Counted from the first letter of the stretch, positions 6,444 to 63,660 are shown. The stretch: DNA of 64,000 bases from a virus (IMGVR_UViG_3300017911_001939:1-64000), one strand, 5' to 3'. The notes: generated from the sequence alone by a model not told the origin. Made by a program: numbers and translations.

Positions 6444-6485
6444 ACTACCACTAAATCTAATCAATATACACATAGCGAGGTAGCA

Positions 6486-42498: not shown

Positions 42499-42499
42499 A

Positions 42500-42507
42500 T
42501 ATAAATA
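42500..42507 (+). promoter_or_regulatory. T4-type late promoter
   Basis: TATAAATA upstream of 42540. Confidence 0.7.
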
Positions 42508-42539
42508 AAGTAAACCTTATTTTACAGAGGAATTAAAAA

Positions 42540-43361: not shown

Positions 43362-43371
43362 GAGGTAAGTC

Positions 43372-44739: not shown

Positions 44740-44742
44740 AGA

Positions 44743-47700: not shown

Positions 47701-49845
47701 GCTACACGTAGAATTGCTCGTATTCGCCAAAGACTTTCTGCATTCCGTGATCGCTGGATTGGTAACCCAACTGGTTCTCGAGTCCTTGTTCGTGGTGATG
47801 TAAGATCTCGCCGTGAAACAATTGCTGATCGCGTTATCGATGTATCGTTTATCCCATTCATGAGAGCACGTAAGATCTTCTTCCGTGTACAAGGTTTGCG
47901 TAGAGATACTAAGCACTTCCTCTTCTTTGGTGGTCAAGATATTTCAGATTATGCAAGAGAAGAAACAGTATTCGAAAGATTCGCTGCTCGCTCTGATAAT
48001 CCTGGCAGCATCTTTACAAATCATACTGCACACCCAAATGGTACTTCGGCTCTGACATCAGATTCTGCAGGTAAGTTAGTTGGTTCATTTATTATTCCAT
48101 CTAACAATGCTCTGAAGTTTAGAACAGGTGCACAAAGAGTTGAGCTGATGGATGTCACATCTGGTAATGCAGACGATGCTATCTCTAAAGCACAGACAAC
48201 ATTCCAATCAACTGGTATTCTAAACACTCGTCAAAGAACAGTCAGAAATACAAGAATTGAGACTGAGTTCTTTGTACAAGAATATGATCCATTAGCACAA
48301 ACATTCCGTGTTGATGCACAAGAAGATCCAAACGGTATCTACATTACAAAGTGTGATATTTTCTTCTCTACAAAAGAAGATAATTTTGGTGTTCCTGTAC
48401 AAATGCAAATCAGACCAGTTGAAAATGGTATTCCAACGTCTGCTCCGATTCCAGGTGCTGTTAAGTTCTTGAATCCACAAGATGTTAATATTCCATCTAA
48501 CTTAAATAGCTTGTCTACTATTCAGGCAACGCCAACAACATTTGAGTTTGATGAGCCTGTATATCTTGAGCCACAAAGAGATTATGCGATTGTTCTCCTT
48601 GCAGATACAACTGCATATAACGTGCATGTCGCTAAGACTTATGACTTCCTGATTGGTTCTACTGAACAGCGTGTTACTAAACAGCCAACGCTTGGTTCGA
48701 TGTTTATCTCTCAGAATGGTATTACTTGGACGCCTGATCAAGAACGTGATCTGATGTTCAGATTATATAGAGCACAGTTCGCTACTTCTGGTAAAGCTAT
48801 CCTTAATAACTCTGAGACAGAAAAACGTCTACTTGAGAATAATCCGCTTCTAACAGATTCTGCAGATCCTAGCAAGCTTCGTGTATTCCATGAAGGTCAT
48901 GGTTTTGCTAAGAACGATTATGTTACAATTAGTGGACTTGACTCAAGCACAACATATGCAGGTGTTATCGGTACAGACATTATGGGTTCAAGACAGATTA
49001 CCTCTGTCGACCATACTGGTTATACATTTACTATGGATTCATCTGCAAATGCAGCATTAAGACTTGGTGGTAACGGTGTCATCGCAACGCAAAATGCTAT
49101 GTATGATGCCTTTGTTCCTCAAATTCAAATCTTACAGCCTGATGATACAACTATCTCTGCTAAGATTAAACAAACTGAAGGATCTTCGTTTGGTAATCAA
49201 AGAAATACTGTATTCTCTCAAGCTGGTAAGCAATCTACATATACAGATATTACACTAAATGAATTTAACTTCAATGAGACACCTAAAGTTATCTTTAGCG
49301 ATTCAAACGAAACAGCAAATATTTCAAGTGCAAAATCTATGACAATGGAAATTACGCTTGGCACATCTGATAATAAGGTTTCACCAATTATCGATTTGCA
49401 ACGTGCGTCGATTGCATCGTTTGAAAATACGATTGATAGTGGTGGTTCTCATGCTATCACAACGATTGGTGAAACTGATCCTACTGAAGGTACCGCGGCT
49501 GCTAAGCATATCACAAAAGCAGTTACGCTTGAAGAGCCTGCGGTTGGTTTGAAGATCTTGTTTGCAGCTAACAGACCAGCTGCTGCAGGATTTAAGGTGT
49601 TTATTAAGACTGCGACATCTGATGAAACCTTAGATGATGTTGCATATGTAGAAATCACCGAAGAAACAAACAATCCAGCGGACGAAAACAAAGATCGCTT
49701 TAGACAATACGAATATCTTGCTGGTGGACAAGTTGGTAACCTCAACTCATTCACTCAGTTCCAAGTTAAGCTCGTAATGACAAGTACTAATACTTCTAAG
49801 ATCCCAACAGTAAAAGATCTGAGAGTAATTGCATTGGTGACATAA
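44743..49845 (+). CDS. Large virion structural protein (DUF4815/VrlC-like)
   Basis: DDY..NFHRILF..QARELTQMQT, APGADRY, RTKEESGNY, DPLAQTF; 1700 aa. Confidence 0.8.
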   Translation: MATTLTNTTFSTTYKDDYKDSDNFHRILFNSGKALQARELTQMQTIIQNEIQRFGSNIFVDGGVVQPGGLTVNNKLEYIRLAASQLPVNLDDIIGKTFTVKSPDPALRVKVLKAVRADGSDPDTLYVEYVSTSAGTSSSAPVRVGASQVLENTDLGSSYDMTIASSNAVGQGTEVSIAKGSFFVQGHFVFCAKQSIFAEKYSTNANKDVGLKVEEEIIGATDDDGLYDNQGATPNLAAPGADRYRIKLTLTTRDAIDSTDNFVYLAKVSSGKIVDESRTDNSYNVLNDVLALRTKEESGNYIVKPFNAQFNSKNDSNLELEISDGIVYVDGYRLNADGKKINVPKAQDTITINNETIVVQYGNYIMGSNSTSKGLPEIDTLAKLTLRSAATFGGDDLGTCRCRFVEEDNSGDSRFYLFDIQMRPGKNFSSVRSFGTSTSDYIDVVLEGGVAVLKNTGNNDLLMPLPRTRPTNTGITHDTITFLKKYSMTTNTSGNSTANIAAGAGLTFTNLNAWIAAADDSAIDGSINLQLDGTQENFFVNDGSGVASKTYEVLAYVTKGSPSKRTKSLNNTTITKAWPGDVESDGTGAGIEFLALDKADIFEVEAIKIEDSDGADITTNFNIDNGQRDNYYGIGRIVKKAGSTIPTGDIFVRYKYFTHGNGDFFDITSYPTASVPYDKVPSHTQNDGTVVSLRDVIDFRPVAVRDADNADSSILSFNFDSNGAGGNPIIQSLPQSTDTFTADIVYYMPRADRLVATFLNEKGERLPRGQVKVVQGVSSLDPQLPAIPTGSMPLYNMNLNPFTLNESDLTTAFIPAKRFTMADIAELEQRIDTLQELTTLSLLEVDTSNLTVLDSAGNERTKAGFLVDNFKDFAFSAVGRDEYRAGVDELAGLLEPLQEAHNTRLIFDSADANSTVIRKGDNLYLPIDSDVMMINQALATETENINPFAVIVSQGHMELSPSSDEWVETRYAPDNIVQGETVTERLATRRIARIRQRLSAFRDRWIGNPTGSRVLVRGDVRSRRETIADRVIDVSFIPFMRARKIFFRVQGLRRDTKHFLFFGGQDISDYAREETVFERFAARSDNPGSIFTNHTAHPNGTSALTSDSAGKLVGSFIIPSNNALKFRTGAQRVELMDVTSGNADDAISKAQTTFQSTGILNTRQRTVRNTRIETEFFVQEYDPLAQTFRVDAQEDPNGIYITKCDIFFSTKEDNFGVPVQMQIRPVENGIPTSAPIPGAVKFLNPQDVNIPSNLNSLSTIQATPTTFEFDEPVYLEPQRDYAIVLLADTTAYNVHVAKTYDFLIGSTEQRVTKQPTLGSMFISQNGITWTPDQERDLMFRLYRAQFATSGKAILNNSETEKRLLENNPLLTDSADPSKLRVFHEGHGFAKNDYVTISGLDSSTTYAGVIGTDIMGSRQITSVDHTGYTFTMDSSANAALRLGGNGVIATQNAMYDAFVPQIQILQPDDTTISAKIKQTEGSSFGNQRNTVFSQAGKQSTYTDITLNEFNFNETPKVIFSDSNETANISSAKSMTMEITLGTSDNKVSPIIDLQRASIASFENTIDSGGSHAITTIGETDPTEGTAAAKHITKAVTLEEPAVGLKILFAANRPAAAGFKVFIKTATSDETLDDVAYVEITEETNNPADENKDRFRQYEYLAGGQVGNLNSFTQFQVKLVMTSTNTSKIPTVKDLRVIALVT

Positions 49846-50069: not shown

Positions 50070-50580
50070 TCTGTCGGATCCAGTTTCTACCTGGGTTAAC
50101 AAGACTAATACAATCGCCACTAATGTTGGTGATTTGGCTACGCTATCGACATCCGATACAGCGAGTCTTGTTGCTGCCATTAACGAAATTAATGGTCTGA
50201 TAAATACAAATTTAAATGACTCAAACGAAATTAAAGGGATGTTCGTATCATCTACTTCTATTGAGTTTGATTCATCTGCCGGATCATTTAGCATTATTGA
50301 TTCAGCAGTTACTGGGGCAATGATAGATAATGATGCAATTGTAGAAAGGCATATTGCTGCAGCTTCAATTGTAAATAGTCATCTTTCACCTGGTGCGGTT
50401 GACACATTAGCACTTGCTGATGGAAATGTAACGAATGCTAAATTAGCTGATTCCTCTATCGGCTTCTCAAAAATTCAAGCTGGCGCAATTAAGTCAGTGA
50501 ATTTTGTTAATACAACTACGCTGTTGATTAAAGATTCTGCAGCTACAACATTGAAAACATTATATAGTCCTGGAAGTTAA
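50050..50580 (+). CDS. Fibre-like structural protein
   Basis: WVNKTN..VGDL..L..ASLVAAINE; 10-aa AVT..KI/L repeats. Confidence 0.7.
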   Translation: MAVTTINLSDPVSTWVNKTNTIATNVGDLATLSTSDTASLVAAINEINGLINTNLNDSNEIKGMFVSSTSIEFDSSAGSFSIIDSAVTGAMIDNDAIVERHIAAASIVNSHLSPGAVDTLALADGNVTNAKLADSSIGFSKIQAGAIKSVNFVNTTTLLIKDSAATTLKTLYSPGS

Positions 50581-50582
50581 TT

Positions 50583-51539
50583 ATGGCAGTTAGAAATCCT
50601 CTTTATTATTCGTCTGGTGATTTGCAAAAAATGACTGGTGCACAGATTAGTGCTATGATTGATATGGTAATCTATCAATATGGTTCTGATCCATCCGTTA
50701 CACTTACACAAGTTGGCAGTTCTGGTAATCTTGATGCAATGAGTGATACTCGTTTGCAAGCTGGTTCATATATTACTCGCGTAGATAGATATGCGACTGA
50801 AGCTGAAACAGCAGAACCATCAACGGTAACAGTAAGTTATGATCGTATCAATCAAACAAATGCAACCGTAGCACAACTTACATCTGGCGATACAGTTTCA
50901 GGTGCAGGCGAAGGTTCATTTCCATTCTACTATGATGGTGATGATCTAAGAACAATGACGCATACAGATATGCTTGACACGTTTATTCGTCCTGCTATCA
51001 CAAAGCTTACAACTGGTTCAACTGGTACAGATCAAGCTGGTACGTATAGAATTCACACGGCAACATCACTATCAGGCAATACACTAATTAGTTCAACGCC
51101 TGTCTTTATTGATACTCGTGCTAACACGGGTGCATATACGGCTGGTGGTATTCCTGAAACTCTTGATCAGCCTACGACTATTTCTAATTTCTATTTGATG
51201 AGAATTAATCAGGCATCTTCTGCACCAACCGTTGTAAATATGCTAAGACAGACATCGTCGAATGACTTGCAAGAATATACCGATACAGAACAAAACAATA
51301 TGCTTAAGAACATGGTTCGTTGGGCTGCTGTTAATGATACTGGTAATCGAATCCAATATCGTGTTGCTACATCTGGTACAGGAAATGCTCGTGGATCTGG
51401 TATGACAGATACAAAACTAAATGGTTCAGGTAACTATCAAACGCGCTTCGTTAATGCGAACGACTATCGTGCACAGGAATTTCCGAATGGTTCGGCTGTG
51501 ACGCAGAATACATATTATTTAAGAATCTATACAAACTAA
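50583..51539 (+). CDS. Virion structural protein with threefold internal repeat
   Basis: Repeated DLQ/DLR..M..I...DTR/DTK...Y units; Thr/Ser/Gly-rich. Confidence 0.65.
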   Translation: MAVRNPLYYSSGDLQKMTGAQISAMIDMVIYQYGSDPSVTLTQVGSSGNLDAMSDTRLQAGSYITRVDRYATEAETAEPSTVTVSYDRINQTNATVAQLTSGDTVSGAGEGSFPFYYDGDDLRTMTHTDMLDTFIRPAITKLTTGSTGTDQAGTYRIHTATSLSGNTLISSTPVFIDTRANTGAYTAGGIPETLDQPTTISNFYLMRINQASSAPTVVNMLRQTSSNDLQEYTDTEQNNMLKNMVRWAAVNDTGNRIQYRVATSGTGNARGSGMTDTKLNGSGNYQTRFVNANDYRAQEFPNGSAVTQNTYYLRIYTN

Positions 51540-51551
51540 AGGAATTGAAGA

Positions 51552-52085
51552 ATGGCTTTTCACTGGGAAGAAGGAATTGAATACGCCCGTTATATTGATG
51601 AAGATCGTCAAAATATCGAGGTAATGCATATTATTGAAGACGATGAAAATATTCATGGTCGTTCAGCCAAATTGCATGTATTACCTGCTGATGATAACGA
51701 TGTGCAATTCAAAGCTTTACTCGAGCATTTCACATATGATGATATTATGGAAATGACATATAGCTATAATCAAAATGCAGAACGTGCATTCGAAGAGCAA
51801 GTTATAGCAATCGCCCAAAAATCTGGAGTACTAGCTACTCTAGATGTTGACGTTGTTTCTTATGAATATGTCGATAAGCTTATCGATATTCTCTTCTTAG
51901 AAAAAGGTATTAAAGATAAAGAACTAAAAGAACTTATCTTTAAAACCAAACTTAGATTATTTGAAACTGATTTGGTTAAAAATAATAATAATAAAGAACT
52001 TAAAAGTTCATTACGCAAATCATCGTCACTAAAAGATATTTTTTATATTATGATGCAGATTGAGGAAGATACTCCTCAAACCTAG
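51552..52085 (+). CDS. Hypothetical protein, possible tail fibre chaperone
   Basis: AGGA RBS; acidic 177 aa protein after fibre-like genes. Confidence 0.55.
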   Translation: MAFHWEEGIEYARYIDEDRQNIEVMHIIEDDENIHGRSAKLHVLPADDNDVQFKALLEHFTYDDIMEMTYSYNQNAERAFEEQVIAIAQKSGVLATLDVDVVSYEYVDKLIDILFLEKGIKDKELKELIFKTKLRLFETDLVKNNNNKELKSSLRKSSSLKDIFYIMMQIEEDTPQT

Positions 52086-52848
52086 AAAAATCTTTATTAA
52101 CCACATGATGAAGACTTGCGCCTAAATGCTTAGTCGAAAATGTGTTATCAATTATCCAATTCCAACTTAGTCCAATAGGATTAATTGGTATTTTATAAAA
52201 TTCTTTTATAAAAGAAAAATAGACCTCATTGTTCCTAGAGAATGATGAGGCTATTTCTTTTGGATAGATGTTATCAACTAGTGCTTCATCAAAAATAGTA
52301 TCTGCATAATCCAATCTTTCACTTAATCTAAAATCTTCAATAGCGTTTTTATTGCCAATTAACACGCCGGTGTTAGCAATTTGGTTATTACCGCTGATAC
52401 CTTCTAATAGTAACATTGCATTTTTGCAACATGCCTTTACTACCATATTCATTTTATCAAAATCAATTGTATCAATCCACCAATCACCATATACCCGTTC
52501 TCCCCAATTAGGCTTAGTATCGATAAAATGTGCACCTACATATTTGTGAGTAGCATGTTTATCAAAAATATTTTGAGCGCTTGTGGGTATTACGTCTAAG
52601 TCTAAATAAACTACTTCATCATATTCGTTTGCTAAGTCTTCAAACCTATATAATTTTTCAAACTGTAGGTCATCATAATCTGGAATAGAAGGAGTAAAAC
52701 AATGATATTCTGCATTACACAGATTAGCATAATCTTTGTGAGCAGATATTAATCGATCTTTATATTTTGCAAACGCATCTTTCTTTTCTTGTGGAGATGA
52801 AGTGTGCCTATGAACATCTGCCCAAATACTATAGATAATTCTTTTCAT
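52048..52848 (-). CDS. Glycosyltransferase (GT-A fold)
   Basis: YDEVVYLDLDV, NTGVL, NNE, HVVNK; paralog of upstream gene. Confidence 0.75.
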   Translation of the reverse strand: MKRIIYSIWADVHRHTSSPQEKKDAFAKYKDRLISAHKDYANLCNAEYHCFTPSIPDYDDLQFEKLYRFEDLANEYDEVVYLDLDVIPTSAQNIFDKHATHKYVGAHFIDTKPNWGERVYGDWWIDTIDFDKMNMVVKACCKNAMLLLEGISGNNQIANTGVLIGNKNAIEDFRLSERLDYADTIFDEALVDNIYPKEIASSFSRNNEVYFSFIKEFYKIPINPIGLSWNWIIDNTFSTKHLGASLHHVVNKDFSRFEEYLPQSAS

Positions 52849-53698
52849 AAAAATCAAAAACCTCTTTGAATTTTTTATTGATAACATGTACGAATTTGCT
52901 TTTGCGTGGAACTACTTTATACCTATCATAAAACATATGCCATGGCCAATCCAACCATTGAATAGGTATATTTCTAGTTTTAACTAAGTAAGACCATATC
53001 GTTTCATTATCCCATCCAAACATTTCTCTAATATCTTCAGGATACATTTCGTCGTTTTTTAGATTATCCATATCTTTAATTACGGCATCTAAATTATCGA
53101 AATATGCTAATTGCTTCATATGCTCTGACGATACTCCCACAATGCCTGTATTAAATACATCATTATCGGTGTTATATCCGTTCGATTCTAATAATGCAAA
53201 GCAATTCCAATATTTTGCAGTTGGGCTTCTATTAGATTCGACAGGCCGATTACGCAATTCTCTTAGAGTTTTCTTCGCTAGATTGTTATTATCTTTAATC
53301 GCGATGCCTTTAGATAAGTCGTGCACTTCAAAGAAATTTTCTTGAGTCATAGGAACTACGTCAAAATCTAAATAAAGAATTTCGTCGTAATGACGAGATA
53401 GCTCGTGTATGATTTGTAGCTTATAGAAATTTACTATATTATATTCGGTTATTTGCGGATATGTTTCGTTAAACCATTTTTTATATAATTTAAAATCTTC
53501 ATCATACTCGTACATCAAGAACGTTACACCAATATCATTGGCATATTTTTGTTTACATGCTAATAATTTATCATAATACTTTTGAAATTCTATTTTAGTT
53601 CTTTCGGTTTTAGGTATATCATCACCATAGTAAGGTGCTTGATAATCCAAATCTTCTTTTGGAATATCGATATACAAACTATAAATTACTCTACGCAT
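52829..53698 (-). CDS. Glycosyltransferase (GT-A fold)
   Basis: YDEILYLDFDVVP, FNTGIV, DNET, HVINK. Confidence 0.78.
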   Translation of the reverse strand: MRRVIYSLYIDIPKEDLDYQAPYYGDDIPKTERTKIEFQKYYDKLLACKQKYANDIGVTFLMYEYDEDFKLYKKWFNETYPQITEYNIVNFYKLQIIHELSRHYDEILYLDFDVVPMTQENFFEVHDLSKGIAIKDNNNLAKKTLRELRNRPVESNRSPTAKYWNCFALLESNGYNTDNDVFNTGIVGVSSEHMKQLAYFDNLDAVIKDMDNLKNDEMYPEDIREMFGWDNETIWSYLVKTRNIPIQWLDWPWHMFYDRYKVVPRKSKFVHVINKKFKEVFDFYEKNYL

Positions 53699-54341
53699 AA
53701 CCAATTACCATATATCTTTCATAACCGTTTGACATTTTTAATTTGCCAGAATATTTAATGTTAGATAATCCGCATTTATCTTCAAGTTCCCATCTTGAAT
53801 TTACACAATTGCTGTGGTCATCAATATGAAACATATTATTGCTTTGAATTGCAAATAATGGTATTTCATAATTACGTCTATGAAAAAATGGTTCGATATA
53901 CTTTTTTCGAATAATATTTTTCATGTCTGGCATATGTTCTGATGACGTGTTAATTATTAGATTAGCTTTTTCATCTAAAGGACCATTTTCTTGAACATCC
54001 CCGCATCGCTCAGCATAAGCATAGTTTTTTAATTTCATATAACGTCTAAAAACATTTAATGATTTAATATCTAAATCAATATTTTCTACAAAGGAAATAT
54101 CTAATGTAGAGTTTAATAATGCCACAATGGGAAAGCCTATCCATCCTCCAAATAGTTGAACATGAATATCGTCTTTTTCTAAAAGATGCGGTATAATTTT
54201 ATCTACTAGCCATACTTTCGATTCAATTTGATGTGGTGACATAGAATCAAGTAAATGTTTTATGTCATACTTTTCGCTTTCTGTATTTTCCCATAAAATT
54301 TGCCAAATATCTGGATCAATTCCAATAGTGTTCAAATCCAT
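53691..54341 (-). CDS. SAM-dependent methyltransferase-like protein
   Basis: SKVWL, LFGGWIG, NIDLD, IINTSSEHM, QSNN. Confidence 0.65.
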   Translation of the reverse strand: MDLNTIGIDPDIWQILWENTESEKYDIKHLLDSMSPHQIESKVWLVDKIIPHLLEKDDIHVQLFGGWIGFPIVALLNSTLDISFVENIDLDIKSLNVFRRYMKLKNYAYAERCGDVQENGPLDEKANLIINTSSEHMPDMKNIIRKKYIEPFFHRRNYEIPLFAIQSNNMFHIDDHSNCVNSRWELEDKCGLSNIKYSGKLKMSNGYERYMVIGYA

Positions 54342-55023
54342 CATAGCCCTCATCATCTAACAAATATTTGCCATTAATATATTCGGTATTCCGTCTCCAT
54401 CCGTTAAATATGCAGACAGGATATGTATCATCTTTAAAAAGAGGTTTAGATTTTGTGCCAGCTTTAAAGTAATTGTTTTCATCAATACCGTATAACCGGG
54501 AATAGATTTCACCTTTCGGAAATACATTAAGCTTATCGTAATGGTGATAATATAGATATGAATCTATACCATTATATTTTACCATATAATAATCAGGATC
54601 TTTCATAAATTCTGACCATATAGATGTTAGATCACCGTGCCATATCATAACAGACGAGTTATAGTTCATATCGGTACCAGTCAATTCGTATGGTTTCCAA
54701 TATGCCTCGATAAGTCTTAGCTTACTCTTCTCGCAATAATCTTTGAAGTGTGTAATGTCATTTTGCAGTACGACATCTAAGTCAAAGAACATTTCAGGAA
54801 CTACAGCTGGTTCTTTAAATAACCGTAGTTTCCACCACCAGTTTTCTAAATCATATTCTTGTTCGAGAGGTTTTCTTAGAATATATGGATGCAAACCGCG
54901 AGGATCATCAGTATAGCAAACGAATCTAAATGATTCGTTAAACTGTTTTGTGCACATAGCATATAATCGATTTACATGCTCGTACGAAAACTTATCACCC
55001 CATTTTACGCAAGATATAATCAT
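54316..55023 (-). CDS. Glycosyltransferase (GT-A fold)
   Basis: CVKWGDKF, CYTD, WWWKL, FFDLDVV, YNSSVM. Confidence 0.8.
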   Translation of the reverse strand: MIISCVKWGDKFSYEHVNRLYAMCTKQFNESFRFVCYTDDPRGLHPYILRKPLEQEYDLENWWWKLRLFKEPAVVPEMFFDLDVVLQNDITHFKDYCEKSKLRLIEAYWKPYELTGTDMNYNSSVMIWHGDLTSIWSEFMKDPDYYMVKYNGIDSYLYYHHYDKLNVFPKGEIYSRLYGIDENNYFKAGTKSKPLFKDDTYPVCIFNGWRRNTEYINGKYLLDDEGYDGFEHYWN

Positions 55024-56545
55024 TAATAACCAATAAATCTAATTCTGTTTTTTCAAATGTAGCTATAGCATCTTCAGGCGTTTCAACGATAGGTTCTTTA
55101 CAATTAAAACTAGTATTCAATAGCATTGGAATTCCAGTAATTTTATAGAACTCGTTAATAAGATCGTAATATTTGCGATTCTGTTTACGATTTAGTGTTT
55201 GAATGCGCGCAGTACCATCTACGTGCGTAACACCTGGAATTTTATCAGAAATAACAGGCATAATTCTAGACATATATGGACTCGGTTGATTAGTATCAAA
55301 ATATTCTTTGTAATGTTCTTCCATAACAGAAGGAGCAAATGGTCTAAAATCTTCTCGCTGTTTAATTGTATGATTAATTCTATCTTTAATATGAGGATCA
55401 CGAGGATCAGCTAAAATACTACGATTACCAAGAGCTCTATTACCCGATTCGCATTTTCCTTGATACCAACCAACTACTGCGCCATCGGCTATAGCTTGTG
55501 CTACTTCTTTATAGTCTACCCTTTCAGTGCCAATATATTTGTATTCTTTACCAGAATAAACTGTAGGCCTATGTCGATTTTTATTAAGAGTATAATCGGC
55601 ATGGATGTATGTGCCAATAGATTGACCCTCATCTCCAGGTGCCGGAGGTACATGAACCTTTTTATATGTTTTAGTAAATTCCTCATTCATATAACCGTTA
55701 TATGCTACACCTCCAGCAACGCATAGATTGTTGCAAGATTTTAAAGGTAACACATGCTCATCAATTAATTCTTGTGTTGCATATTGTAATGTATATGCAA
55801 CATCTTCTATCTTAGTATGATCTAAAGTTTTTTCTATATCTTCTGGAAATGGATCAATCTTTACATTGTATTCTCCACGTCTATTCTTTTTTAGCTCCAT
55901 TTTGTGCTTAAAAATATTTTTATTATATTCATCAATTATCATATGGATTTTTAAATTATATTCTCCATATCCAGCAAGACCCATAAGTTTACCAGCACCT
56001 AAATGTCCGAATCCCAATTGTTTCGAAAAATAATTCCATAGAATGCCGATATTCATTTTATCTGAAAGATCGGTCATACGCCCATCTTTATCAAAGAACA
56101 CACAGTTATAGTGCCAACCTCTACCATCAATGGCTAAAATATCAGACTTTCTAAATCCTGAATCCATATATGCATATGCGGCGTGTGATTGATGATGGTC
56201 AATGTAATATACATTATCAATCATAGCATAGTCCCATAAATTCTTTGGTTTAAAACCAAAGAACTCATAATATAATTCTCTATCAGCTAATAAGCTAACT
56301 CCACCTTTAGTGGTAGTAAAAGCAAAAACTTCATGTTCTTCTGGCTTATGATATTCATCATAAAATTTTAACATAAATTCATCATCATCTTGATTCATGC
56401 TAATTAGTTCTGATTGATGCGAATACACATCCACATGCCATGGAATATTATGTTTACGTCTGCTGTATCTTTCTATTTGATTGTGCAAAACACCATCATA
56501 AGTATTTTGGTCATGTGGACTTAGTGCGATACTAAAGATTTTCAT
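54995..56545 (-). CDS. O-carbamoyltransferase (CmcH/NodU family)
   Basis: DHHQSHA, IDGRG, GKLMGLAGYG, AGGVAYN, GNRALGNRSIL, REDFRPFAP, HVDGTARIQ, LLNTSFN. Confidence 0.92.
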   Translation of the reverse strand: MKIFSIALSPHDQNTYDGVLHNQIERYSRRKHNIPWHVDVYSHQSELISMNQDDDEFMLKFYDEYHKPEEHEVFAFTTTKGGVSLLADRELYYEFFGFKPKNLWDYAMIDNVYYIDHHQSHAAYAYMDSGFRKSDILAIDGRGWHYNCVFFDKDGRMTDLSDKMNIGILWNYFSKQLGFGHLGAGKLMGLAGYGEYNLKIHMIIDEYNKNIFKHKMELKKNRRGEYNVKIDPFPEDIEKTLDHTKIEDVAYTLQYATQELIDEHVLPLKSCNNLCVAGGVAYNGYMNEEFTKTYKKVHVPPAPGDEGQSIGTYIHADYTLNKNRHRPTVYSGKEYKYIGTERVDYKEVAQAIADGAVVGWYQGKCESGNRALGNRSILADPRDPHIKDRINHTIKQREDFRPFAPSVMEEHYKEYFDTNQPSPYMSRIMPVISDKIPGVTHVDGTARIQTLNRKQNRKYYDLINEFYKITGIPMLLNTSFNCKEPIVETPEDAIATFEKTELDLLVINDYILRKMG

Positions 56546-57326
56546 AGATATAATCCGCTAATATTTTTTGGCCTTCTGCATTTGGGTGAGCATCTTCTTC
56601 TGATATTCTATATTTTTTATAATCATCAACTTCGTGTGATATAACGTAAAATGGTTTTTCTTTATTTTTATGATCTATACCTATAAAATCGATAGGAGAT
56701 AATCTTTTATAATAAGGAGAGTTTAATATAACACTAAGAGCTGCTTCATCAAAATCTGCTCGGTCTTCGAATTTAAAGTGATTCCACCACCTAGATGCAC
56801 CCCATCTTTCTTGTGATGCTGGCAATCCGCCGGAATTGCCAAACTGTTGTTTGAAATAATGGCTATATAATTGTATCATTTGGAATTGTTTTAATGGGAT
56901 TCTTTGACTAGCACAAATAGTTTGTATGCTATAAAAATATCTTAAGCTTTCTTTTATCCATCCAAGAATGTTTCCTTGAGGTTTTACTCTTTCGTTACGC
57001 CAAGTAAATTGATACTCTGTCATATTTCTATATCTATTATGGGCTTTATAAACGCTTTCGAAATCATATCTTTGAGCCTGTGACCATGCCAACATAACAT
57101 AGCCAATATCTTTAGGATCATACTCTTGCATAGCATCTAATACAGAACTATAAATCATATGATTTCCTTGTCCGCATTTGCCGACATTTACAACTTCCAT
57201 CCCTAATTTACTACCCACAAGCTCTGGCCATTTAGGCCAACTCGTATCTAATTTAGGATGGTAATCAGATGTGAAATTTTCATCTGTCCAACTATCACCG
57301 CCTGCTATTAGTATTTTTCTAGCCAT
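56532..57326 (-). CDS. SGNH/GDSL hydrolase or acyltransferase
   Basis: GGDSWT block I, NVGKCGQGN, DAHPN. Confidence 0.75.
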   Translation of the reverse strand: MARKILIAGGDSWTDENFTSDYHPKLDTSWPKWPELVGSKLGMEVVNVGKCGQGNHMIYSSVLDAMQEYDPKDIGYVMLAWSQAQRYDFESVYKAHNRYRNMTEYQFTWRNERVKPQGNILGWIKESLRYFYSIQTICASQRIPLKQFQMIQLYSHYFKQQFGNSGGLPASQERWGASRWWNHFKFEDRADFDEAALSVILNSPYYKRLSPIDFIGIDHKNKEKPFYVISHEVDDYKKYRISEEDAHPNAEGQKILADYIYENL

Positions 57327-57735
57327 GTAATTTTTTCCATTGCTTATTAAACGTAAGCATTCTTTCTTCTACTGATGGATAATACATATACGAATCTAAA
57401 TCTACCATATAAGGCTTCTTCGTATTTTCACATACGATATAATTTTGTCTATGGAAATCGTTGAATGTATAATCTGATTTATGATTTACAATATCCTCTA
57501 TTACTGTATTAGGTTCTGTAAAATAAAAACCTTTTATATAATCAATTATAATAGTAATCGTCTTATCTTCAATAGAATACTCATAATTAGGAATTAGTAT
57601 TCTATTAAAATTTTCACTTCTCAATCTAGTTAAATTATCATATACAATTTTTGCATAATCTACGGTTTGATATTCAATTACTTTAGTAAGAGTAAATGTT
57701 TTTATATTCGTTCTAAGCGAATCCACATAATACAT
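57319..57735 (-). CDS. Minimal protein-kinase-like fold protein
   Basis: IDYIKG, DFHRQNYIV catalytic loop, MVDLD. Confidence 0.55.
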   Translation of the reverse strand: MYYVDSLRTNIKTFTLTKVIEYQTVDYAKIVYDNLTRLRSENFNRILIPNYEYSIEDKTITIIIDYIKGFYFTEPNTVIEDIVNHKSDYTFNDFHRQNYIVCENTKKPYMVDLDSYMYYPSVEERMLTFNKQWKKLHG

Positions 57736-57738
57736 ATT

Positions 57739-58563
57739 TTAAAATCCTAGTGTTCTATCATTTAGTGCCACGATAAGATTATCTAAAGTATGTTCTCCTT
57801 GTTCAGAAAGTTGCTCAGTGCATATTTTACAATATTCTTCATACTGAAATAAATCGAAATTCATCATCTTCTCGATGTTCTTTTTTGTTACATCAAATGT
57901 CTTAGAACCATTAATTACTTTTTTACTGCAGTGCCTTATTTTTTGCATTTCAAAGTCAATGACTGGAACTGAAGGATATTTGGCACAAAGCTTTCTAGTA
58001 ATTTCAGAAGCTTGCATATCTACATCATAAAACGGTGATCTTGCATTAAATTTTTTAAACATAGTATTATCATGATCTATATGTGATAAGTCATAATTTT
58101 CTCTAAATTTAAAATAATTAGGAGTTTGAATAATAACGTTATAGTTGTTATTATCATTTTGCTCTAAAAAATCATAGTTACCTAGTTTTTCAATGCGATC
58201 TTCATGAAAGTCTAGTACTAGGTGTTCGACATAATAAATTGAAGGATCTTCTAATATATGTGGATAACGCTTGCGCACAAACGAATTAGACAATACTGAA
58301 GGAATAAGAGTAGGATATTTTTTAATTTCAGCAATGACTTCATCCAAATTTTTTACTAGGCCTGGTTCTCCACCTAGCAAATTAATTTTTGCTTTGTATC
58401 TAGAAAGATATTTTAATGTTTTACTTAGAAAATCCATATCTACTTCTAGATTTCTCATTTCCAATGTCCATGCTGTACAGTAATGGCATGACTTATTGCA
58501 AGATTTTGTTAAATAAAAATCAATACCAAAATATCCATTCGCTTTTAAATCTTTATAATTCAT
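57739..58563 (-). CDS. Radical SAM enzyme
   Basis: CNKSCHYC, LLGGEP, SN; C-terminal Cys cluster (C..HC..CKIC). Confidence 0.85.
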   Translation of the reverse strand: MNYKDLKANGYFGIDFYLTKSCNKSCHYCTAWTLEMRNLEVDMDFLSKTLKYLSRYKAKINLLGGEPGLVKNLDEVIAEIKKYPTLIPSVLSNSFVRKRYPHILEDPSIYYVEHLVLDFHEDRIEKLGNYDFLEQNDNNNYNVIIQTPNYFKFRENYDLSHIDHDNTMFKKFNARSPFYDVDMQASEITRKLCAKYPSVPVIDFEMQKIRHCSKKVINGSKTFDVTKKNIEKMMNFDLFQYEEYCKICTEQLSEQGEHTLDNLIVALNDRTLGF

Positions 58564-58919
58564 GTTGAATCCACTTTTTCGGGTTTGCCATCTGCTGACA
58601 AAACGATTTGCTTTTTATGGCTATCAGTTTCTCTCTTTTTACAGATATGATGGCATATGCCAAAACCTTTACCTTCTTTTAAATCTTCAAAAAACTTAAC
58701 CCATTCATCTTGTAAAATAATTTCATCTAAAGATTCGTAATCATCAATTTTACTGACAGCTAATAAATCTTTATACCTAGGTTCTTTTCTAGTATGCTGA
58801 TTATCACACCAACAACACGGAATAAGTTCTCCCAAATTTGTAACAGCAAACGCGTTTTGTTGATTATTAAAACATTTAGGCTCTATTTCATGTCGAGAAT
58901 CATATTTGTCTAATTCCAT
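58560..58919 (-). CDS. Stand-alone SPASM/twitch-like Fe-S domain
   Basis: PKC...AVTNLGELIPCCWC...ICHHIC. Confidence 0.65.
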   Translation of the reverse strand: MELDKYDSRHEIEPKCFNNQQNAFAVTNLGELIPCCWCDNQHTRKEPRYKDLLAVSKIDDYESLDEIILQDEWVKFFEDLKEGKGFGICHHICKKRETDSHKKQIVLSADGKPEKVDST

Positions 58920-58922
58920 AAT

Positions 58923-59573
58923 TTAATTTCTCCTCAGTGAAAGAGCCATCTCTTTATTTTTTGGTTTCAATGGATCATTTTTTCCTTCCCATCGAGAAGA
59001 ATATAATAGTCTAAATTTGATATTAGGAAGGTCTGCAATTAAACTTCTAGCTTCTTCTATATGATGTTCATTATAACTAAATACAATATATTGCCAATCT
59101 GCGCGATCTAAATATTTAGCAGATTCCCTAATAAGTCTAAGCATCTTATGACCGTCTTGATTTTTTCGGTATTTGTCGCTTTCATCAGGTAATCCGTCTA
59201 ATCCAAAAAACCATACTGCATGTGGATTTGCTTTCCAAGCTTTAGGATACCAACTTTCTGGTTTAGCCGCAGATGCGTGGTGTACTGTTACAGAATTTCC
59301 ATTTTTGTATGCCATTTCTAGCATTTCTATAAACTTGGGATGGTGCACTGGATCTGATACTTGACCACAAAAATTAATATGATAAAAATGATTTAAAATT
59401 TTTTCATATCTATCCAAAGGCATATCTTCTCCAGTTACTTTTAATCCCTTAGAAGTAAATGAAGTGTATCTTTGGCATCTTAAACATTCTAACGGACATC
59501 TATGCGTGATATCAATATTACACGCTGGTCTGTGATGAAATGTATTTGGATCTACTGGTAATTTTTCTCCCAT
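58923..59573 (-). CDS. Radical SAM enzyme (core only)
   Basis: CPLECLRC, FCGQVSDP, FGLDG, WQYIVFSYNEH. Confidence 0.85.
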   Translation of the reverse strand: MGEKLPVDPNTFHHRPACNIDITHRCPLECLRCQRYTSFTSKGLKVTGEDMPLDRYEKILNHFYHINFCGQVSDPVHHPKFIEMLEMAYKNGNSVTVHHASAAKPESWYPKAWKANPHAVWFFGLDGLPDESDKYRKNQDGHKMLRLIRESAKYLDRADWQYIVFSYNEHHIEEARSLIADLPNIKFRLLYSSRWEGKNDPLKPKNKEMALSLRRN

Positions 59574-59580
59574 ATAATCC

Positions 59581-59940
59581 TCACATATAATTAATTTTGT
59601 CTATAGACTTATTAAGAGAAGTTTCACACCATATTTTAAATTGTTTATTTAAAGCAGTTAGAAGATTATATTCTACTATATGATTGAAATGTTCTATAAA
59701 ATATTTAGCATTTGCATTGTTAAAAGATAAGTAAGTCTTTTCGACTATTAAATCATAAATTTCTGGACATACACCTTTAGTATATTCTTCATTAATTATA
59801 AATTCTTCATAACAATGTTCACTAAAAATTTTATGCAGATGTACTTCTTTTTTAAGTCTATCAGACACATCTATTAAATTAAAGTTTTCGTCAAGAATAC
59901 AAAATTTATCTATTTCTTTGTCAATTAATAATTCTACCAT
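59581..59940 (-). CDS. Hypothetical protein
   Basis: 119 aa ORF filling the operon gap. Confidence 0.55.
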   Translation of the reverse strand: MVELLIDKEIDKFCILDENFNLIDVSDRLKKEVHLHKIFSEHCYEEFIINEEYTKGVCPEIYDLIVEKTYLSFNNANAKYFIEHFNHIVEYNLLTALNKQFKIWCETSLNKSIDKINYM

Positions 59941-59941
59941 A

Positions 59942-61006
59942 TCAGACTCTTAATGCAACTGTGTTGATGACATGTTCAATTTCCTCATCTTTTAACCAAG
60001 CATGAATAGGTAACGAAAGTACGGTGTCTGCAGTATGCCGTGCTACTGCACAATATCCGCTACGATATTGGATATGGTTGTACATTGAATTATCGGGAAT
60101 AACTCGCTCATAATGTACTGATCCACCTAAAGCTTTCTTTACTTCGTTACGCGTTTCTTTATCCTCGAATTGTATTACGTATTTATGATAGTTGTGGTTG
60201 TCATGTTTTTGCGGAGTCTTTACAAGACCATCGAATTCATAATCATATTCTTTTGCAATTTCTTGTCTACGCTTTTGCCATTGTTCCATAAACTGAAAGC
60301 GATGTAGAATAACATCTGCATTAAAGTTATACATCTTTGAGTTGTAGCCCAACATAGCAAAGTCTTTATCTTTACCATGCTTAGCAAGCATACGTACTGT
60401 CTTGGCAATCTGATCGTCATCTGTCATAAACATGCCACCGCCTGAGATACCAGCAATGACTTTATTACCATTAAAGCTGTACGAACTACAATCACCAATT
60501 GTACCAGCCTTGCGGCCATTTAGACTTACACCTAATGACTGAGCCGCATCTTCAATAAAGACAATATCATTTTCTTTACAATAGTTCTCAATCTCGGTAG
60601 TATCGGTCATATTACCAAAAAGGTGTGTATAGATGAGAGCGCAGTTACCATCACGCTTCATCTTTTTTACAGACTCAAGTGTCATATGATAAGAGTCAGG
60701 ATCAATATCACAAAAGACTGGCATTGCACCCGCCATAGAGATACAACTTGCTGATGAGATCCATGAAAAACCAGTCACAAAGACTTGCCAACCTGGACCA
60801 ATGCCATGTGCTTTCAAAGAAAAATACAATGCATCGGTTGCACTACTTACAGGCACACAGTGTTTACGACCTGTATAATCTCTGAACGCTTGCTCTAGCT
60901 CTTCGGTTGGCCCTTCTGGTTCTTTTGCCATAGCCTTGTCAAAGAGTTCATAATATAGTTCTTTATTCTCGAGATATTCTCTATCCCAACCGTTGTAGTT
61001 CATCAT
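59942..61006 (-). CDS. DegT/DnrJ/EryC1/StrS PLP-dependent sugar aminotransferase
   Basis: SSATDAL, IEDAAQSLG, SYSFNGNK (PLP Lys), GYNSKM, LSLPIH. Confidence 0.92.
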   Translation of the reverse strand: MMNYNGWDREYLENKELYYELFDKAMAKEPEGPTEELEQAFRDYTGRKHCVPVSSATDALYFSLKAHGIGPGWQVFVTGFSWISSASCISMAGAMPVFCDIDPDSYHMTLESVKKMKRDGNCALIYTHLFGNMTDTTEIENYCKENDIVFIEDAAQSLGVSLNGRKAGTIGDCSSYSFNGNKVIAGISGGGMFMTDDDQIAKTVRMLAKHGKDKDFAMLGYNSKMYNFNADVILHRFQFMEQWQKRRQEIAKEYDYEFDGLVKTPQKHDNHNYHKYVIQFEDKETRNEVKKALGGSVHYERVIPDNSMYNHIQYRSGYCAVARHTADTVLSLPIHAWLKDEEIEHVINTVALRV

Positions 61007-61826
61007 ATGCTTTCATAATAGGTTCAATATTGGGCTTTTCTATAGAACGTCGACTATAAACCCAACCGCCATCTCTAATTTTTGTAGATCTATTATACTC
61101 TATTTTCTTATCGAAGTACATGCATTCTTGCAAAATTCTTGGCGCAGGATCAAATTGCTCTTTCGCATACACATACGTATTAAACATGCCTAATAAATTA
61201 TCTACAGGTGCGAAAATATTTTGTAAAAGGGGGTTTACAAACGCTTCTTTATATGTTATAATAAAGTATGACTTGTAGGAGGGAGCCAGTATACCCGCCC
61301 TTTCGTAGTACTGTTTTCCAGTCCCTAAAAACATATGTTCTGCTTTTAGATCTGGAACAGGATCTTTGTAAATATCAAAATTAATTCTTTTTTCGAAGTG
61401 ATCACCTACACCATTCACATACACATCAGTGTCACATAGATCATATACATGTCGTGGTCTAAAATAGTCTAAAGCATAATTATACTCTATAGGATGATTT
61501 TCAGAATATACTGATATTAGTTTGTGCGAAAACGCATCTATTAGAGAGAATAGTTGGTCATGACTATACTTATCTTTTAATTTCCACGCGTGAGTAAGCA
61601 TACTTCTACCCATAATAAGGGTAACATCGGTTTCTTCATAGAAATATTCGAATGATACATTTTTACAATGTACATACTTTTTTTCTAAAGAAGTGATATA
61701 ATCATTTACTTTGAAATCTGGATGTGGTATAATAATAAGTCGAGCATCGAGTAAAGATGCATATTCATAACTATAATATAACAAACCATCGCACGGCTTA
61801 CTCGTACATAGAATGTTCAATCTCAT
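60981..61826 (-). CDS. Hypothetical protein, possible GT-B-type glycosyltransferase
   Basis: 281 aa; C-terminal FDPAPRILQEC resembles the GT-B nucleotide-binding helix. Confidence 0.45.
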   Translation of the reverse strand: MRLNILCTSKPCDGLLYYSYEYASLLDARLIIIPHPDFKVNDYITSLEKKYVHCKNVSFEYFYEETDVTLIMGRSMLTHAWKLKDKYSHDQLFSLIDAFSHKLISVYSENHPIEYNYALDYFRPRHVYDLCDTDVYVNGVGDHFEKRINFDIYKDPVPDLKAEHMFLGTGKQYYERAGILAPSYKSYFIITYKEAFVNPLLQNIFAPVDNLLGMFNTYVYAKEQFDPAPRILQECMYFDKKIEYNRSTKIRDGGWVYSRRSIEKPNIEPIMKAYDELQRLG

Positions 61827-62563
61827 TGCGAATCAAATGCCCATTTCTTTTCATAACACCAAAAACAATGACCACACTCTTTTGCAAAATAATCTGTTTC
61901 TCTTGCTGTACCCACGCACGAACCAGTAATTGGATAAAGAGTTTTCATTAAGCCTTCTTCTTTATAAACACCTGCTACAAATTTTTTATCAACATTTATA
62001 TATGGCCTATATTCATCACCTTTTCCTGCCCAATTTTCTTGTGTATACGATCTTCTTTTTTCAGCAAGGTGATCAAAACCAATATTTTTCATAATATCTT
62101 GTGGCGGATTTTTTGTTATACCAGTGACGATTAAACACTCGTGCATTTTTTCGCAAATTTCTAAATGTTTTTGTTTTTCTAAAACTTTTACTAGACCTTC
62201 AATGTTATTACATCTATCAACATATTGGCCATCTATTAATACGCGTTCATCATTCCAACGCTCTTTAGCATATTCTTGCAATTCTTGATCATAAATGTCG
62301 AATTCATAGATATAGTGTTGACCGATTTTATGATTTGGAAATGTATCTTTCATAAATTCTACAATATCTAATGAGCAGAGCGCATCAAATGGAGCAGTCA
62401 AATCTTTTCCCGTAAAAGGAATAATTTCGACATTTGGAAAATGTTTACAGATTAAGTATAACAGAGATGCCGAATCAAGTCCTCCAGATAGCGATAAGAT
62501 AATTTTATCAGGAACATACTTATCGAATAGATCTATCGTTTGGTTTCCATAACTAATTTTCAT
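61823..62563 (-). CDS. QueC-like PP-loop ATPase
   Basis: LSLSGGLDS PP-loop; C-terminal SC...CGHCFWC Zn site. Confidence 0.75.
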   Translation of the reverse strand: MKISYGNQTIDLFDKYVPDKIILSLSGGLDSASLLYLICKHFPNVEIIPFTGKDLTAPFDALCSLDIVEFMKDTFPNHKIGQHYIYEFDIYDQELQEYAKERWNDERVLIDGQYVDRCNNIEGLVKVLEKQKHLEICEKMHECLIVTGITKNPPQDIMKNIGFDHLAEKRRSYTQENWAGKGDEYRPYINVDKKFVAGVYKEEGLMKTLYPITGSCVGTARETDYFAKECGHCFWCYEKKWAFDSQ

Positions 62564-62583
62564 TATTAAAACTCCATTTTATA

Positions 62584-63219
62584 TCATTTTATCCAATTGA
62601 TAACTTCGTCATAATCAGGCTTATGTTCTCCTGCATTTTTTATATATTTTTGCGGATAACGTCCAGAATGTTTATATCCGAATTGCATAGAAAATATTAC
62701 TTTTTCGTTATCAAGAAATTTCAATTCTTTTTGTAACATTTCGGATTTATAGCATAGCAAATAAGAAACTTGTAAACCGGCTTCAATACAAAGGCCAGAT
62801 AATATGGTAGAAAACATTCCAATTTCTATAGCATTTTCTCTCATTTGAGTATCACCATTGTATCTCTGTGGATCTACACAATAATGCTCAAATACTCTTT
62901 TTCTTTGAAATATACGTAACACAGAATCATTAGGAAAGGTTAGCCTAGAAGTAAAAAGAAGAACATAAGGAGCATATACATTTTTATTGATAAAGGTGCC
63001 ATTATGTGTAGATGCCTCATACAAGATTTCTTTTTCTTTTTTGTGTTTAGGCTGCAATACGTGAACTGTGTATGGCATTAAAGATTGTTTAGACGGTACT
63101 AATTCGTACGTTTTTTTAAGCAATTCTTCTACTAATTCTTGAGGTGGTTCTTCTCGGCCGTAATATCGAATTTGAGTCCTTTTACTAAATACGTCTTCTA
63201 TCGGCATCTTTCTCTCCAT
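62584..63219 (-). CDS. Nitroreductase-family flavoprotein
   Basis: KRTQIRYY, PSKQSLMPY, EIGMF..L..GL..S. Confidence 0.75.
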   Translation of the reverse strand: MERKMPIEDVFSKRTQIRYYGREEPPQELVEELLKKTYELVPSKQSLMPYTVHVLQPKHKKEKEILYEASTHNGTFINKNVYAPYVLLFTSRLTFPNDSVLRIFQRKRVFEHYCVDPQRYNGDTQMRENAIEIGMFSTILSGLCIEAGLQVSYLLCYKSEMLQKELKFLDNEKVIFSMQFGYKHSGRYPQKYIKNAGEHKPDYDEVINWIK

Positions 63220-63280
63220 ATAAATACCATCACCAATTTATTTATATGTATAAATAGGTCTGTATGGTTTTGTATAAATA
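63219..63280. promoter_or_regulatory. Divergent cluster of T4-type late promoters
   Basis: TATAAATA at + 63219, 63249, 63273 and - 63246..63239. Confidence 0.7.
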
Positions 63281-63309
63281 TAGACAAACAACGTAAAGAG
63301 TATTTGTGA

Positions 63310-63660
63310 ATGGCCCAATACGAAGAAATTACAATTGATCAAGGTGCGGATGCATCTATTGAACTACATCTTGTGAATACAGATGGCTCTAAGAAAAATC
63401 TTACGAACCACACCGTCACAGCGAAAATGAAAAAGAATTATACGAGCGACAGTTCAGACACAACCGATTTTGTGTCAACAATCGCAAATGCTCTTGACGG
63501 TATTGCAACTATTTCATTAACAAATCTACAAACAGATGCCCTTAAAGCAGGTCGATACGTTTATGATGTTGAGCTATCATTTCAAGATAGCGATGGTGAT
63601 ACGATTATTGAAAGGGTGTTAGAAGGTAAAATTACAATCACGCCGTCTGTAACGAGGTAA
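63310..63660 (+). CDS. Virion structural protein (Ig-like/BppU N-like)
   Basis: ITIDQGAD, KMKKNY, GRYVYDVE, RVLEGKITITPSVT. Confidence 0.7.
   Translation: MAQYEEITIDQGADASIELHLVNTDGSKKNLTNHTVTAKMKKNYTSDSSDTTDFVSTIANALDGIATISLTNLQTDALKAGRYVYDVELSFQDSDGDTIIERVLEGKITITPSVTR

Follow-up and report, generated by a model that had tools for sequence, protein, structure and literature searches.

A minus-strand island of 15 open reading frames (ORFs), at positions 52048-63219 of the viral contig IMGVR_UViG_3300017911_001939, most likely encodes an operon of soluble enzymes that would build an amino-, carbamoyl- and methyl-decorated sugar in the cytoplasm. The island is best explained as a late-transcribed, horizontally mobile operon inside a tail-fibre island and, judged by sequence comparison, its core pathway is widespread, phage-restricted and uncharacterised. 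The window that we analysed is the first 64 kb (64,000 nucleotides) of this 123-kb IMG/VR contig, for which CheckV gives a completeness of 73%. Its baseplate genes identify a marine T4-like myovirus; gp6 is 46% identical to that of uncultured phage C48C1 and 32-34% identical to those of Methylophilales phage Melnitz and Pelagibacter phages HTVC008M and Mosig. The island proteins, numbered here g1 to g15 from the operon head, are 119-516 aa long, and their ORFs overlap or are separated by gaps of no more than 20 nt. No membrane helix was predicted in any of them, so that all are predicted to be soluble. An earlier note on this DNA, made from the sequence alone, had described a tightly packed minus-strand operon of sugar-tailoring enzymes, and both parts of that description are borne out by the gene layout, by the solubility of the proteins and by the family, profile and fold identities given below; the note counted 14 genes in its title and listed 15, and the list matches the ORFs found.

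Relatives were sought with g8, the most conserved core gene (57739..58563; like all island genes, on the minus strand). The search returned 56 IMG/VR contigs at 54-73% identity, and among GenBank phages (50,697 records) g8 and g3 were found in Pelagibacter phage Mosig only. Mosig_00082-00094 and the island have 11 of the 15 genes in common, at 24-59% identity and in nearly the same order, and the Mosig genes likewise lie between VrlC and tail-fibre genes. No match was obtained when the island and its flank were compared with GenBank phages at the nucleotide level. Comparison of 58 sources revealed 52 distinct gene orders and a conserved core consisting of g3, the DegT gene g4, g8, the carbamoyltransferase gene g11 and the methyltransferase-fold gene g13. 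Homologues of g3, g4 and g13 were present in 45, 55 and 47 of 57 related loci, respectively, and the carbamoyltransferase gene directly followed g8 in 40 of 47 gene orders. At E <= 1e-3, the g8 family gave 286 matches in a set of 1.84 billion representatives. No g8 relative emerged from two pattern scans across 185,579 species genomes, which were too insensitive to show that cells lack the family. The linkage of g3-like, g8-like and DegT genes persists in very distant metagenomic clusters that hold further radical S-adenosylmethionine (SAM) genes.

The family assignments of three core proteins are firm as sequence predictions. The g4 protein (59942..61006) is predicted to be a pyridoxal phosphate-dependent aminotransferase of the DegT/DnrJ/EryC1/StrS family; it matched PF01041 with 267.8 bits (2.1e-79) over 34-350, in effect full length, and its best solved relative was 7b0d (7.7e-57). 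Its NCBIfam matches were PseC/LegC/DesI-like, and it was given no specific reaction because it scored under every equivalog cut-off. The g11 protein (54995..56545) is predicted to be a carbamoyltransferase of the CmcH/NodU/TobZ family with both domains. PF16861 (Carbam_trans_C) scored 229.3 bits against a cut-off of 27 and PF02543 (Carbam_trans_N) 88.1 bits against a cut-off of 24, so that the Kae1-like N-terminal and YrdC-like C-terminal domains both lie above the Pfam cut-offs, although the N-domain match leaves out its first ~110 positions. NovN, GdmN and TobZ were its nearest solved relatives (~1e-49 to 1e-52), and it is 59% identical to Mosig_00089. The g8 protein is predicted to be a radical SAM enzyme, as it scored 33.2 bits against Pfam Radical_SAM (cut-off 29.5) and has an invariant C22-x3-C26-x2-C29 motif. 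C193, C212, C245 and C248 are also invariant and are retained in distant relatives, pointing to a probable auxiliary four-cysteine Fe-S cluster. The nearest folds were those of viperin, BtrN, SuiB and SpeY, from a model of only moderate quality (predicted local distance difference test score (pLDDT) of 67) in which the auxiliary-cluster region lies below 50; BtrN and SpeY are thus among the matches, as is viperin, which has no such cluster. No reaction was assigned to g8 because viperin was as close as BtrN.

The other two core proteins were placed by profile and fold. The g13 protein (53691..54356) had no Pfam match, and its profile matched spermidine synthases (1.7e-5) and KsgA-type methyltransferases among PDB structures; there is good support for a class I SAM-dependent methyltransferase fold nearest to the spermidine synthases. 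The g3 protein (60981..61826), a minimal 281-aa protein, matched no NCBIfam family and no Pfam family, Glycos_transf_1 and Glyco_transf_4 included, and a profile search against solved structures gave nothing useful; its nearest ESM Atlas clusters were GT1/GT4. An AlphaFold2 (AF2) model with a pLDDT of 92.3 predicts two Rossmann-like domains. In the fold comparison (Foldseek, VIA), this model matched PimA and BshA with a Z of 15.2 (root-mean-square deviation 3.6-4.2 over 243-247 residues), T4 alpha-glucosyltransferase with a Z of 13.2, and SdgB, the Ser-Asp-repeat GlcNAc transferase, with a Z of 12.8. Against the E-x7-E motif, g3 has a single invariant Glu (E234) in the expected region. The predicted structure gives good grounds for regarding g3 as a GT-B glycosyltransferase of the GT4 type. 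The earlier note had named a putative glycosyltransferase, a DegT aminotransferase, a CmcH/NodU carbamoyltransferase and a methyltransferase, and each of these calls agrees with the scores above.

What these enzymes could make depends on their substrates. No Epimerase-family (short-chain dehydrogenase/reductase) or NTP_transferase gene was detected with Pfam on the contig (73% complete), and no 2-deoxy-scyllo-inosose synthase of the DHQ-synthase family (PF01761) was matched on the contig or in Mosig. Because the contig lacks these genes, the phage seems neither to activate sugars nor to make 4-keto-6-deoxy sugars, and the keto substrate of the DegT enzyme would have to come from elsewhere, for example from g8 or from the host. 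The nearest solved carbamoyltransferases, of the NovN/GdmN/TobZ type, act on already assembled sugars or scaffolds; together with the absence of sugar-activating genes, this fits an editing of the sugar after its transfer. In the order of reactions that we infer, g3 would attach a sugar from the host nucleotide-sugar pool to an acceptor, g8, with its probable second Fe-S cluster, would oxidise or otherwise activate a sugar carbon, and g4 would convert the keto group into an amine. BtrN and SpeY catalyse an alcohol oxidation of this kind that precedes a DegT-type transamination. Carbamoylation by g11, an enzyme of the TobZ/NovN type, and methylation by g13 would follow, and the PP-loop ATPase, the nitroreductase, the radical SAM/SPASM pair, the SGNH protein and the three GT-A-type transferases would extend the product and diversify it between phages.

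The timing of expression was read from a TATAAATA box at the operon head (63239..63246, minus strand). As the earlier note had stated, this T4 late box, read from 63246 to 63239, lies 19 nt before the first ATG at 63219; the ATG at 63207, 31 nt from the box, stands behind GGAGAG, is better placed and is probably the start of g1. The raw number of boxes in the window did not exceed chance (10 versus 6.7 expected). Their placement on the 123-kb contig was different: of 20 boxes, 15 stand no more than 60 nt ahead of a start on the same strand, compared with 4.3% of random positions, and in almost all cases the genes downstream of the start-linked boxes are structural. This corresponds to T4-type late promoters, in which TATAAATA lies at about -10 upstream of late structural genes, and by its placement the box behaves as a genuine late-promoter motif here. 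In Mosig and at least seven other distinct loci (L008/9, L026/27, L047/59, L049, L051, L018, and L007/57), the first cassette gene likewise stands behind a (T/G)ATAAATA box. Because the box is positionally enriched and is kept at the cassette head in relatives, late expression of the operon, as the note had proposed, is well founded as a sequence inference. No internal TATAAATA box was found within the island, and a sigma-70 promoter scan performed at chance (73 sites versus 72.3 expected) with no convincing site. RNA-library contigs from a relative with 91-92% identity extend over much of the island, with a gap at 54-57 kb, and their depth is like that of the neighbouring structural genes; they also span the divergent promoter region and may represent DNA carry-over, so that they are uninformative on timing or strand. 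Of the four TATAAATA boxes in the 90-nt divergent intergenic region (63219-63309), one belongs to the island and three, on the plus strand (63219, 63249, and 63273), to the gene at 63310.

Fibre-like or fibre-assembly-like genes were found on both sides of the island. On the left, a plus-strand gene (44743..49845) encodes a 1700-aa VrlC-like outer baseplate protein (phrog_358/877, DUF4815, the family of Mosig 'VrlC'), and the island begins 2.2 kb past it. Four small plus-strand genes, starting at 49845, 50050, 50583 and 51552 and reaching 52085, form the flank between them; the second (50050-50580) encodes a 176-aa protein with weak tail-fibre PHROG matches, and the ORFs at 50583-52085 had no assignable family. 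On the right, the divergent plus-strand gene at 63310..63660 resembles fibre-assembly genes (phrog_1084 and phrog_3304, L-shaped tail fibre assembly). The position between fibre-like genes that the earlier note had given is therefore supported from both sides. In the loci compared, the glycosyltransferase end of the cassette always adjoins the same small genes beside VrlC: the f50583/f51552 pair, named after the ORFs at 50583 and 51552, was found there in every sufficiently long locus with transferase genes of the g12 type (GT12) or the g14/g15 type (GT14/15), and the GT-A genes are confined to loci with this arrangement. In an alternative class of cassette, the end lies close to a gene that encodes a fibre-type intramolecular-chaperone domain.

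We suggest that the best-fitting target of the pathway is a virion glycan whose acceptors are the phage's own outer proteins, the fibres and the outer baseplate. This is the least supported step of our argument, and we hold it with somewhat less than even confidence. It is favoured because the promoter is of the late type, the position among fibre genes is conserved, the enzymes are soluble and without lipid-carrier machinery, and the outer proteins of this phage are enriched in an Asp-Ser motif. Attachment to virion proteins is thus drawn from timing, position and the lack of export machinery; family searches found no flippase, polymerase, ligase or phosphoglycosyltransferase in the island. 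Virion glycosylation by phages has a precedent (PMC10527164, as cited in PMC12801897). The fuller proposal is of a late, phage-made glycan on fibres and outer baseplate that would be edited on the protein after attachment by the radical SAM enzyme, the aminotransferase and the carbamoyltransferase, along an amino-sugar route without a nucleotide-sugar dehydratase, and whose add-on genes would be exchanged among phages as a means of varying the surface of the virion; with all of these parts combined, it is rather unlikely.

The motif D-S-[ADGSN] occurs 3- to 8-fold more often than expected from composition in outer baseplate, fibre and neck proteins (window 41473-50580 and contig 63924-96449), for example 23 times versus 3.0 expected in the protein at 65638-67236 and 15 times versus 3.8 in VrlC, and is near zero in the inner structural and non-structural proteins of this phage. 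The enrichment recurs in the flanks of loci L005, L006, L008 and L047 and is not seen in Mosig, HTVC008M or Melnitz. A role as the acceptor signal of the core cassette was ruled out, because Mosig carries the cassette without the enrichment; the motif is therefore not a general acceptor of the core enzymes, and it may be linked to lineage-specific ones.

Several observations weigh against the virion-glycan reading, some of them directly and some through the other readings considered here. The cassette of Mosig coexists with a VrlC that has only 2 Asp-Ser motifs versus 4.6 expected, and the GT-A genes are absent from most loci. The part proposed for g8 rests on a model with a pLDDT of 67 that is as much like viperin as BtrN, and in the gene orders g8 pairs more tightly with the carbamoyltransferase gene than with DegT. 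The authors who described the islands favour modification of the host O-chain against co-infection (PMC7029224), and cyanophage papers interpret similar genes as modifying the host envelope. On this account, the sugar enters the host lipopolysaccharide or capsule pathway, the cell surface changes, and competing phages are excluded. It would agree with the GT8-like character of g14 and g15, as the transferases of the published island are mostly GT8, with the UDP-glucose/GDP-mannose dehydrogenase-family gene of some related loci, and with the variation in copy number of tailoring enzymes, which resembles O-antigen diversity. The only recognisable promoter, however, is of the late type, whereas the exclusion functions of T4 are early. 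Besides the lack of membrane helices, an initiating transferase, a flippase, a polymerase and a ligase are all missing from the island, no nucleotidyltransferase that could activate a new sugar was detected on the contig, and the nearest solved carbamoyltransferases use finished scaffolds and not nucleotide sugars. We consider this account unlikely.

DNA could also be the acceptor. In that case, the GT-B enzyme would glycosylate hydroxymethyl-cytosine as the T4 glucosyltransferases do, and the other enzymes would edit or carbamoylate the DNA-bound group. The model of g3 shares its fold with the T4 alpha- and beta-glucosyltransferases (Z 13.2; TM 0.51), and a phage carbamoyltransferase of the same family as g11 makes 5-carbamoyloxymethylcytosine in DNA (PMC8670742). 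Furthermore, the contig has a thymidylate-synthase-family gene at 120747-121409; it is the only match to the thymidylate-synthase/dCMP-hydroxymethylase family (PF00303) on the contig, and the reported match contains two internal TAA stops. This gene, however, lies ~57 kb from the island, and the complete genome of Mosig has the cassette and no thymidylate-synthase-family gene, so that the cassette would be independent of hydroxymethyl-pyrimidine DNA made by an enzyme of that family. In the 3-kb neighbourhoods of PMC8670742, DNA-modifying carbamoyltransferases are paired with a thymidylate-synthase homologue, whereas those from unmodified contigs adjoin glycosyltransferases, as g11 does. The promoter is late, the island lies in the fibre module, and GT4 enzymes outscored the T4 enzymes in the fold comparison of g3. 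Modification of DNA is therefore very improbable, in agreement with the earlier note, which had placed the glycan on virion proteins and not on DNA; the case against DNA gains from Mosig, and the virion half of that claim is drawn only from timing, position and missing export machinery.

A free small molecule of the aminoglycoside or nucleoside type, or a sugar-free maturation of side chains in a peptide or in fibre proteins, would account for the same enzymes in another manner. A GT4 transferase, a DegT enzyme, a BtrN/SpeY-like radical SAM enzyme and a TobZ-like carbamoyltransferase parallel aminoglycoside tailoring, SPASM and nitroreductase-fold enzymes are likewise common in the maturation of peptides, and distant relatives occur in radical-SAM-rich clusters with B12-radical SAM, ATP-grasp and asparagine-synthase-like genes. 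Neither the contig nor Mosig, however, has a gene of the 2-deoxy-inosose-synthase type, the operon has no exporter, and its gaps of at most 20 nt leave no space for a precursor peptide. A diffusible product made late would have no obvious benefit for a lytic phage, and the location among fibre genes is conserved. These points make both forms of this explanation quite improbable, and the virion glycan remains the target that fits best.

The remaining genes of the island are accessory. The g1 protein (62584..63219) scored 22.7 bits against PF00881, just under the cut-off of 23.5, and its family profile matched solved nitroreductases at an E of 1e-7, which is good evidence for a nitroreductase-fold flavoprotein; homologues were present in 41 of 57 loci, often in 2-4 copies. 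The g2 protein (61823..62563) is well supported as a PP-loop ATP pyrophosphatase with a C-terminal four-cysteine cluster and a QueC-like layout, by an SGGxDS motif and invariant C216, C230, C233 and C236; its matches to QueC, TilS and NAD synthetase, including those from a profile search against solved structures, were weak and confined to the PP-loop region. In some relatives, a g2-type ATPase and a radical SAM core make up a single 458-aa protein, or the ATPase lies inside 743-769-aa proteins (L036:8216-9592; L024:6260-8491; L039:4829-7063; L046:7624-9909), and these fusions hint that PP-loop ATPase and radical SAM enzyme act on one substrate. There is good evidence that g6 and g7 together form a split radical SAM/SPASM enzyme. 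The g6 protein (58923..59573) would be the radical SAM core, with a CxxxCxxC motif, a sub-cut-off Pfam Radical_SAM score of 18.8 bits and an NCBIfam W_rSAM_matur match of 4.7e-7. Its partner g7 (58560..58919) would be a stand-alone SPASM (Fe-S) domain with invariant C16, C35, C36, C89 and C93; 19 of 20 members of its family matched PF13186 at E <= 0.1 (best 3.5e-7), and the window copy scored 15.4 bits against a cut-off of 21.5. Wherever the two families occur together, in 38 distinct gene orders, their genes are adjacent. The nitroreductase, the QueC-like PP-loop ATPase, and the two radical SAM enzymes (g8 and g6) with a SPASM-like ORF had all been listed in the earlier note and are upheld by these matches.

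Other assignments are weaker. The g10 protein (56532..57326) has a GGDSW block and a sub-cut-off match to PF13472 (24.5 bits), and 37 loci have 1-3 members of its blastp family; the SGNH label of the note thus stands on its motif block and is weak in its Pfam score, and an SGNH/GDSL-like hydrolase or acyl-handling enzyme is only a lead. The note had also counted three GT-A glycosyltransferases. For g12 (54316..55023), a DxD protein of the GT-A type, this is well supported by membership in the PHROG glycosyltransferase family phrog_1962 (8e-16), with a weak profile match to Skp1 alpha-galactosyltransferase. For g14 (52829..53704) and its paralogue g15 (52048..52887; same blastp family, 25% identity), GT8-like activity is a lead that comes from the ESM Atlas, in which the nearest clusters are viral and carry PF01501 on 14-25% of members. 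The g14 protein has the motif YDEILYLDFDV, with LDFD invariant, and is 46% identical to Mosig_00091; neither protein had a Pfam match at E <= 0.01 or a PDB profile match. We rejected a single family for g12 and g14/g15, because the profile-profile alignment covers only the DxD stretch (probability 15%), and do not treat the three candidates as one family. The 138-aa protein g9 (57319..57735), called kinase-like in the note, does not bear that name out: it has only a DFHRQN...VDLD (DxxxxN...DLD) motif, no family match, and no homologue among the 57 loci by tblastn. The 119-aa hypothetical protein g5 (59581..59940) matched no family; tblastn found homologues in 3 of 57 loci, and its blastp family occurs in 9 sources including the window, usually directly after DegT.

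The composition of the island differs from that of its surroundings, with a G+C of 0.32 versus 0.39 for the rest of the contig. A dip of 3-9 points at the cassette was also found in other higher-GC contigs, whereas in low-GC pelagimyophage-like contigs the cassette has the composition of its flanks. Because the dip is present only in higher-GC contigs, we suggest that the cassette in the lineage of the window was imported from a low-GC lineage. Among related loci, the copy numbers of radical SAM/SPASM, nitroreductase and SGNH genes differ, and the variable add-ons comprise one to three radical SAM/SPASM pairs, one to four nitroreductases, PP-loop ATPases, a 467-aa radical SAM protein and SGNH proteins; some loci add UDP-sugar dehydrogenase, Asp/Asn hydroxylases, TauD or a desaturase. 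The Asp/Asn hydroxylase, TauD, desaturase, UDP-sugar dehydrogenase and large radical SAM families of these loci are absent from this contig.

At the left end of the island, the 3' ends of its last gene and of the convergent gene at 51552-52085 overlap by 38 nt (52048-52085). A terminator-like hairpin with an 11-bp stem lies on the plus strand at 52224-52250, within that same island gene, and could end transcription that arrives from the fibre operon. In many relatives the cassette is accompanied by a second, divergent late-box operon of oxygenases (Mosig (L002) 2551-8804, L007, L011, L018, and L049). This operon, which the present contig lacks, encodes Asp/Asn beta-hydroxylases, TauD, a fatty-acid-desaturase-like protein, a peroxiredoxin and an FMN reductase and is a candidate for another protein- or sugar-modifying set. 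Distant g8 relatives (L064, 14.5 kb; L071, 12.5 kb; and other loci of L065-L076) come from low-GC, probably non-marine metagenomes and lie in radical-SAM-rich clusters. At least seven radical SAM genes stand with DegT and an NDP-sugar dehydratase/epimerase in L071, and L064 holds B12-radical SAM, ATP-grasp, asparagine-synthase-like and DUF6071 genes.

Pelagimyophage- and cyanomyophage-like phages are among the commonest large marine phages, and their fibre islands set host range. If virion decoration is true, a glycan layer so far unsought would underlie how marine phages recognise hosts, decay, are grazed and undergo immune-like recognition, and the core would be a new enzymatic route to carbamoylated amino sugars, with g8 standing for a family (286 of 1.84 billion representatives) without a known reaction. 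A product on the host surface or on DNA would instead settle a question that has been open since the islands were first described. Mosig, which grows on Pelagibacter ubique HTCC1062, is the only cultured carrier of the cassette and makes the target directly testable.

Four known systems invite comparison. The 5-hydroxymethylcytosine carbamoyltransferase of phages (Yang et al. 2021, PMC8670742) belongs to the same CmcH/NodU/TobZ family as g11, and a thymidylate-synthase-family gene is present on the contig. In contrast to the DNA-modifying members, which adjoin a thymidylate-synthase homologue, g11 has SGNH, glycosyltransferase and radical SAM genes as neighbours and no such homologue within ~3 kb, and its closest cultured homologue is that of Mosig, which lacks the gene altogether. 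In aminoglycoside and natural-product tailoring (BtrN/SpeY with DegT; TobZ, NovN, and NodU), the same enzyme families are clustered; the island differs in being a late phage operon without 2-deoxy-inosose synthase, resistance or export genes. Virus-encoded glycan synthesis is also known from the fibril and capsid glycan clusters of giant viruses, and Mimivirus encodes a DegT-type aminosugar step. The virion glycosylation of mycobacteriophages, on capsid and tail tube (Freeman et al. 2023, PMC10527164), resembles the present system in having soluble glycosyltransferases beside structural genes. In these viruses, glycans are reported on virion proteins, whereas the present system is known from genes alone, and radical SAM enzymes, a carbamoyltransferase and a PP-loop ATPase are not known to belong to the systems described.

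The closest likeness is to the host recognition cluster (HRC) of pelagimyophages and cyanomyophages, a large non-syntenic island from VrlC to the neck gene gp14 with fibres, glycosyltransferases (mainly GT8) and radical SAM cassettes (Zaragoza-Solas et al. 2020, PMC7029224). The island described here also lies directly after VrlC among fibre genes, and it likewise combines fibre genes, glycosyltransferases and radical SAM cassettes in a form that varies between relatives. We found no paper that gives the core cassette a reaction or a target, and PMC7029224 provides the outline only; the five-gene core, the late promoter, the solubility of the enzymes and the absence of sugar-activating genes are not described there. 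The island is thus a pelagimyophage HRC, of a type already known in outline in SAR11 phages, which in this phage occurs as a low-GC island (0.32) within a higher-GC lineage (0.39).

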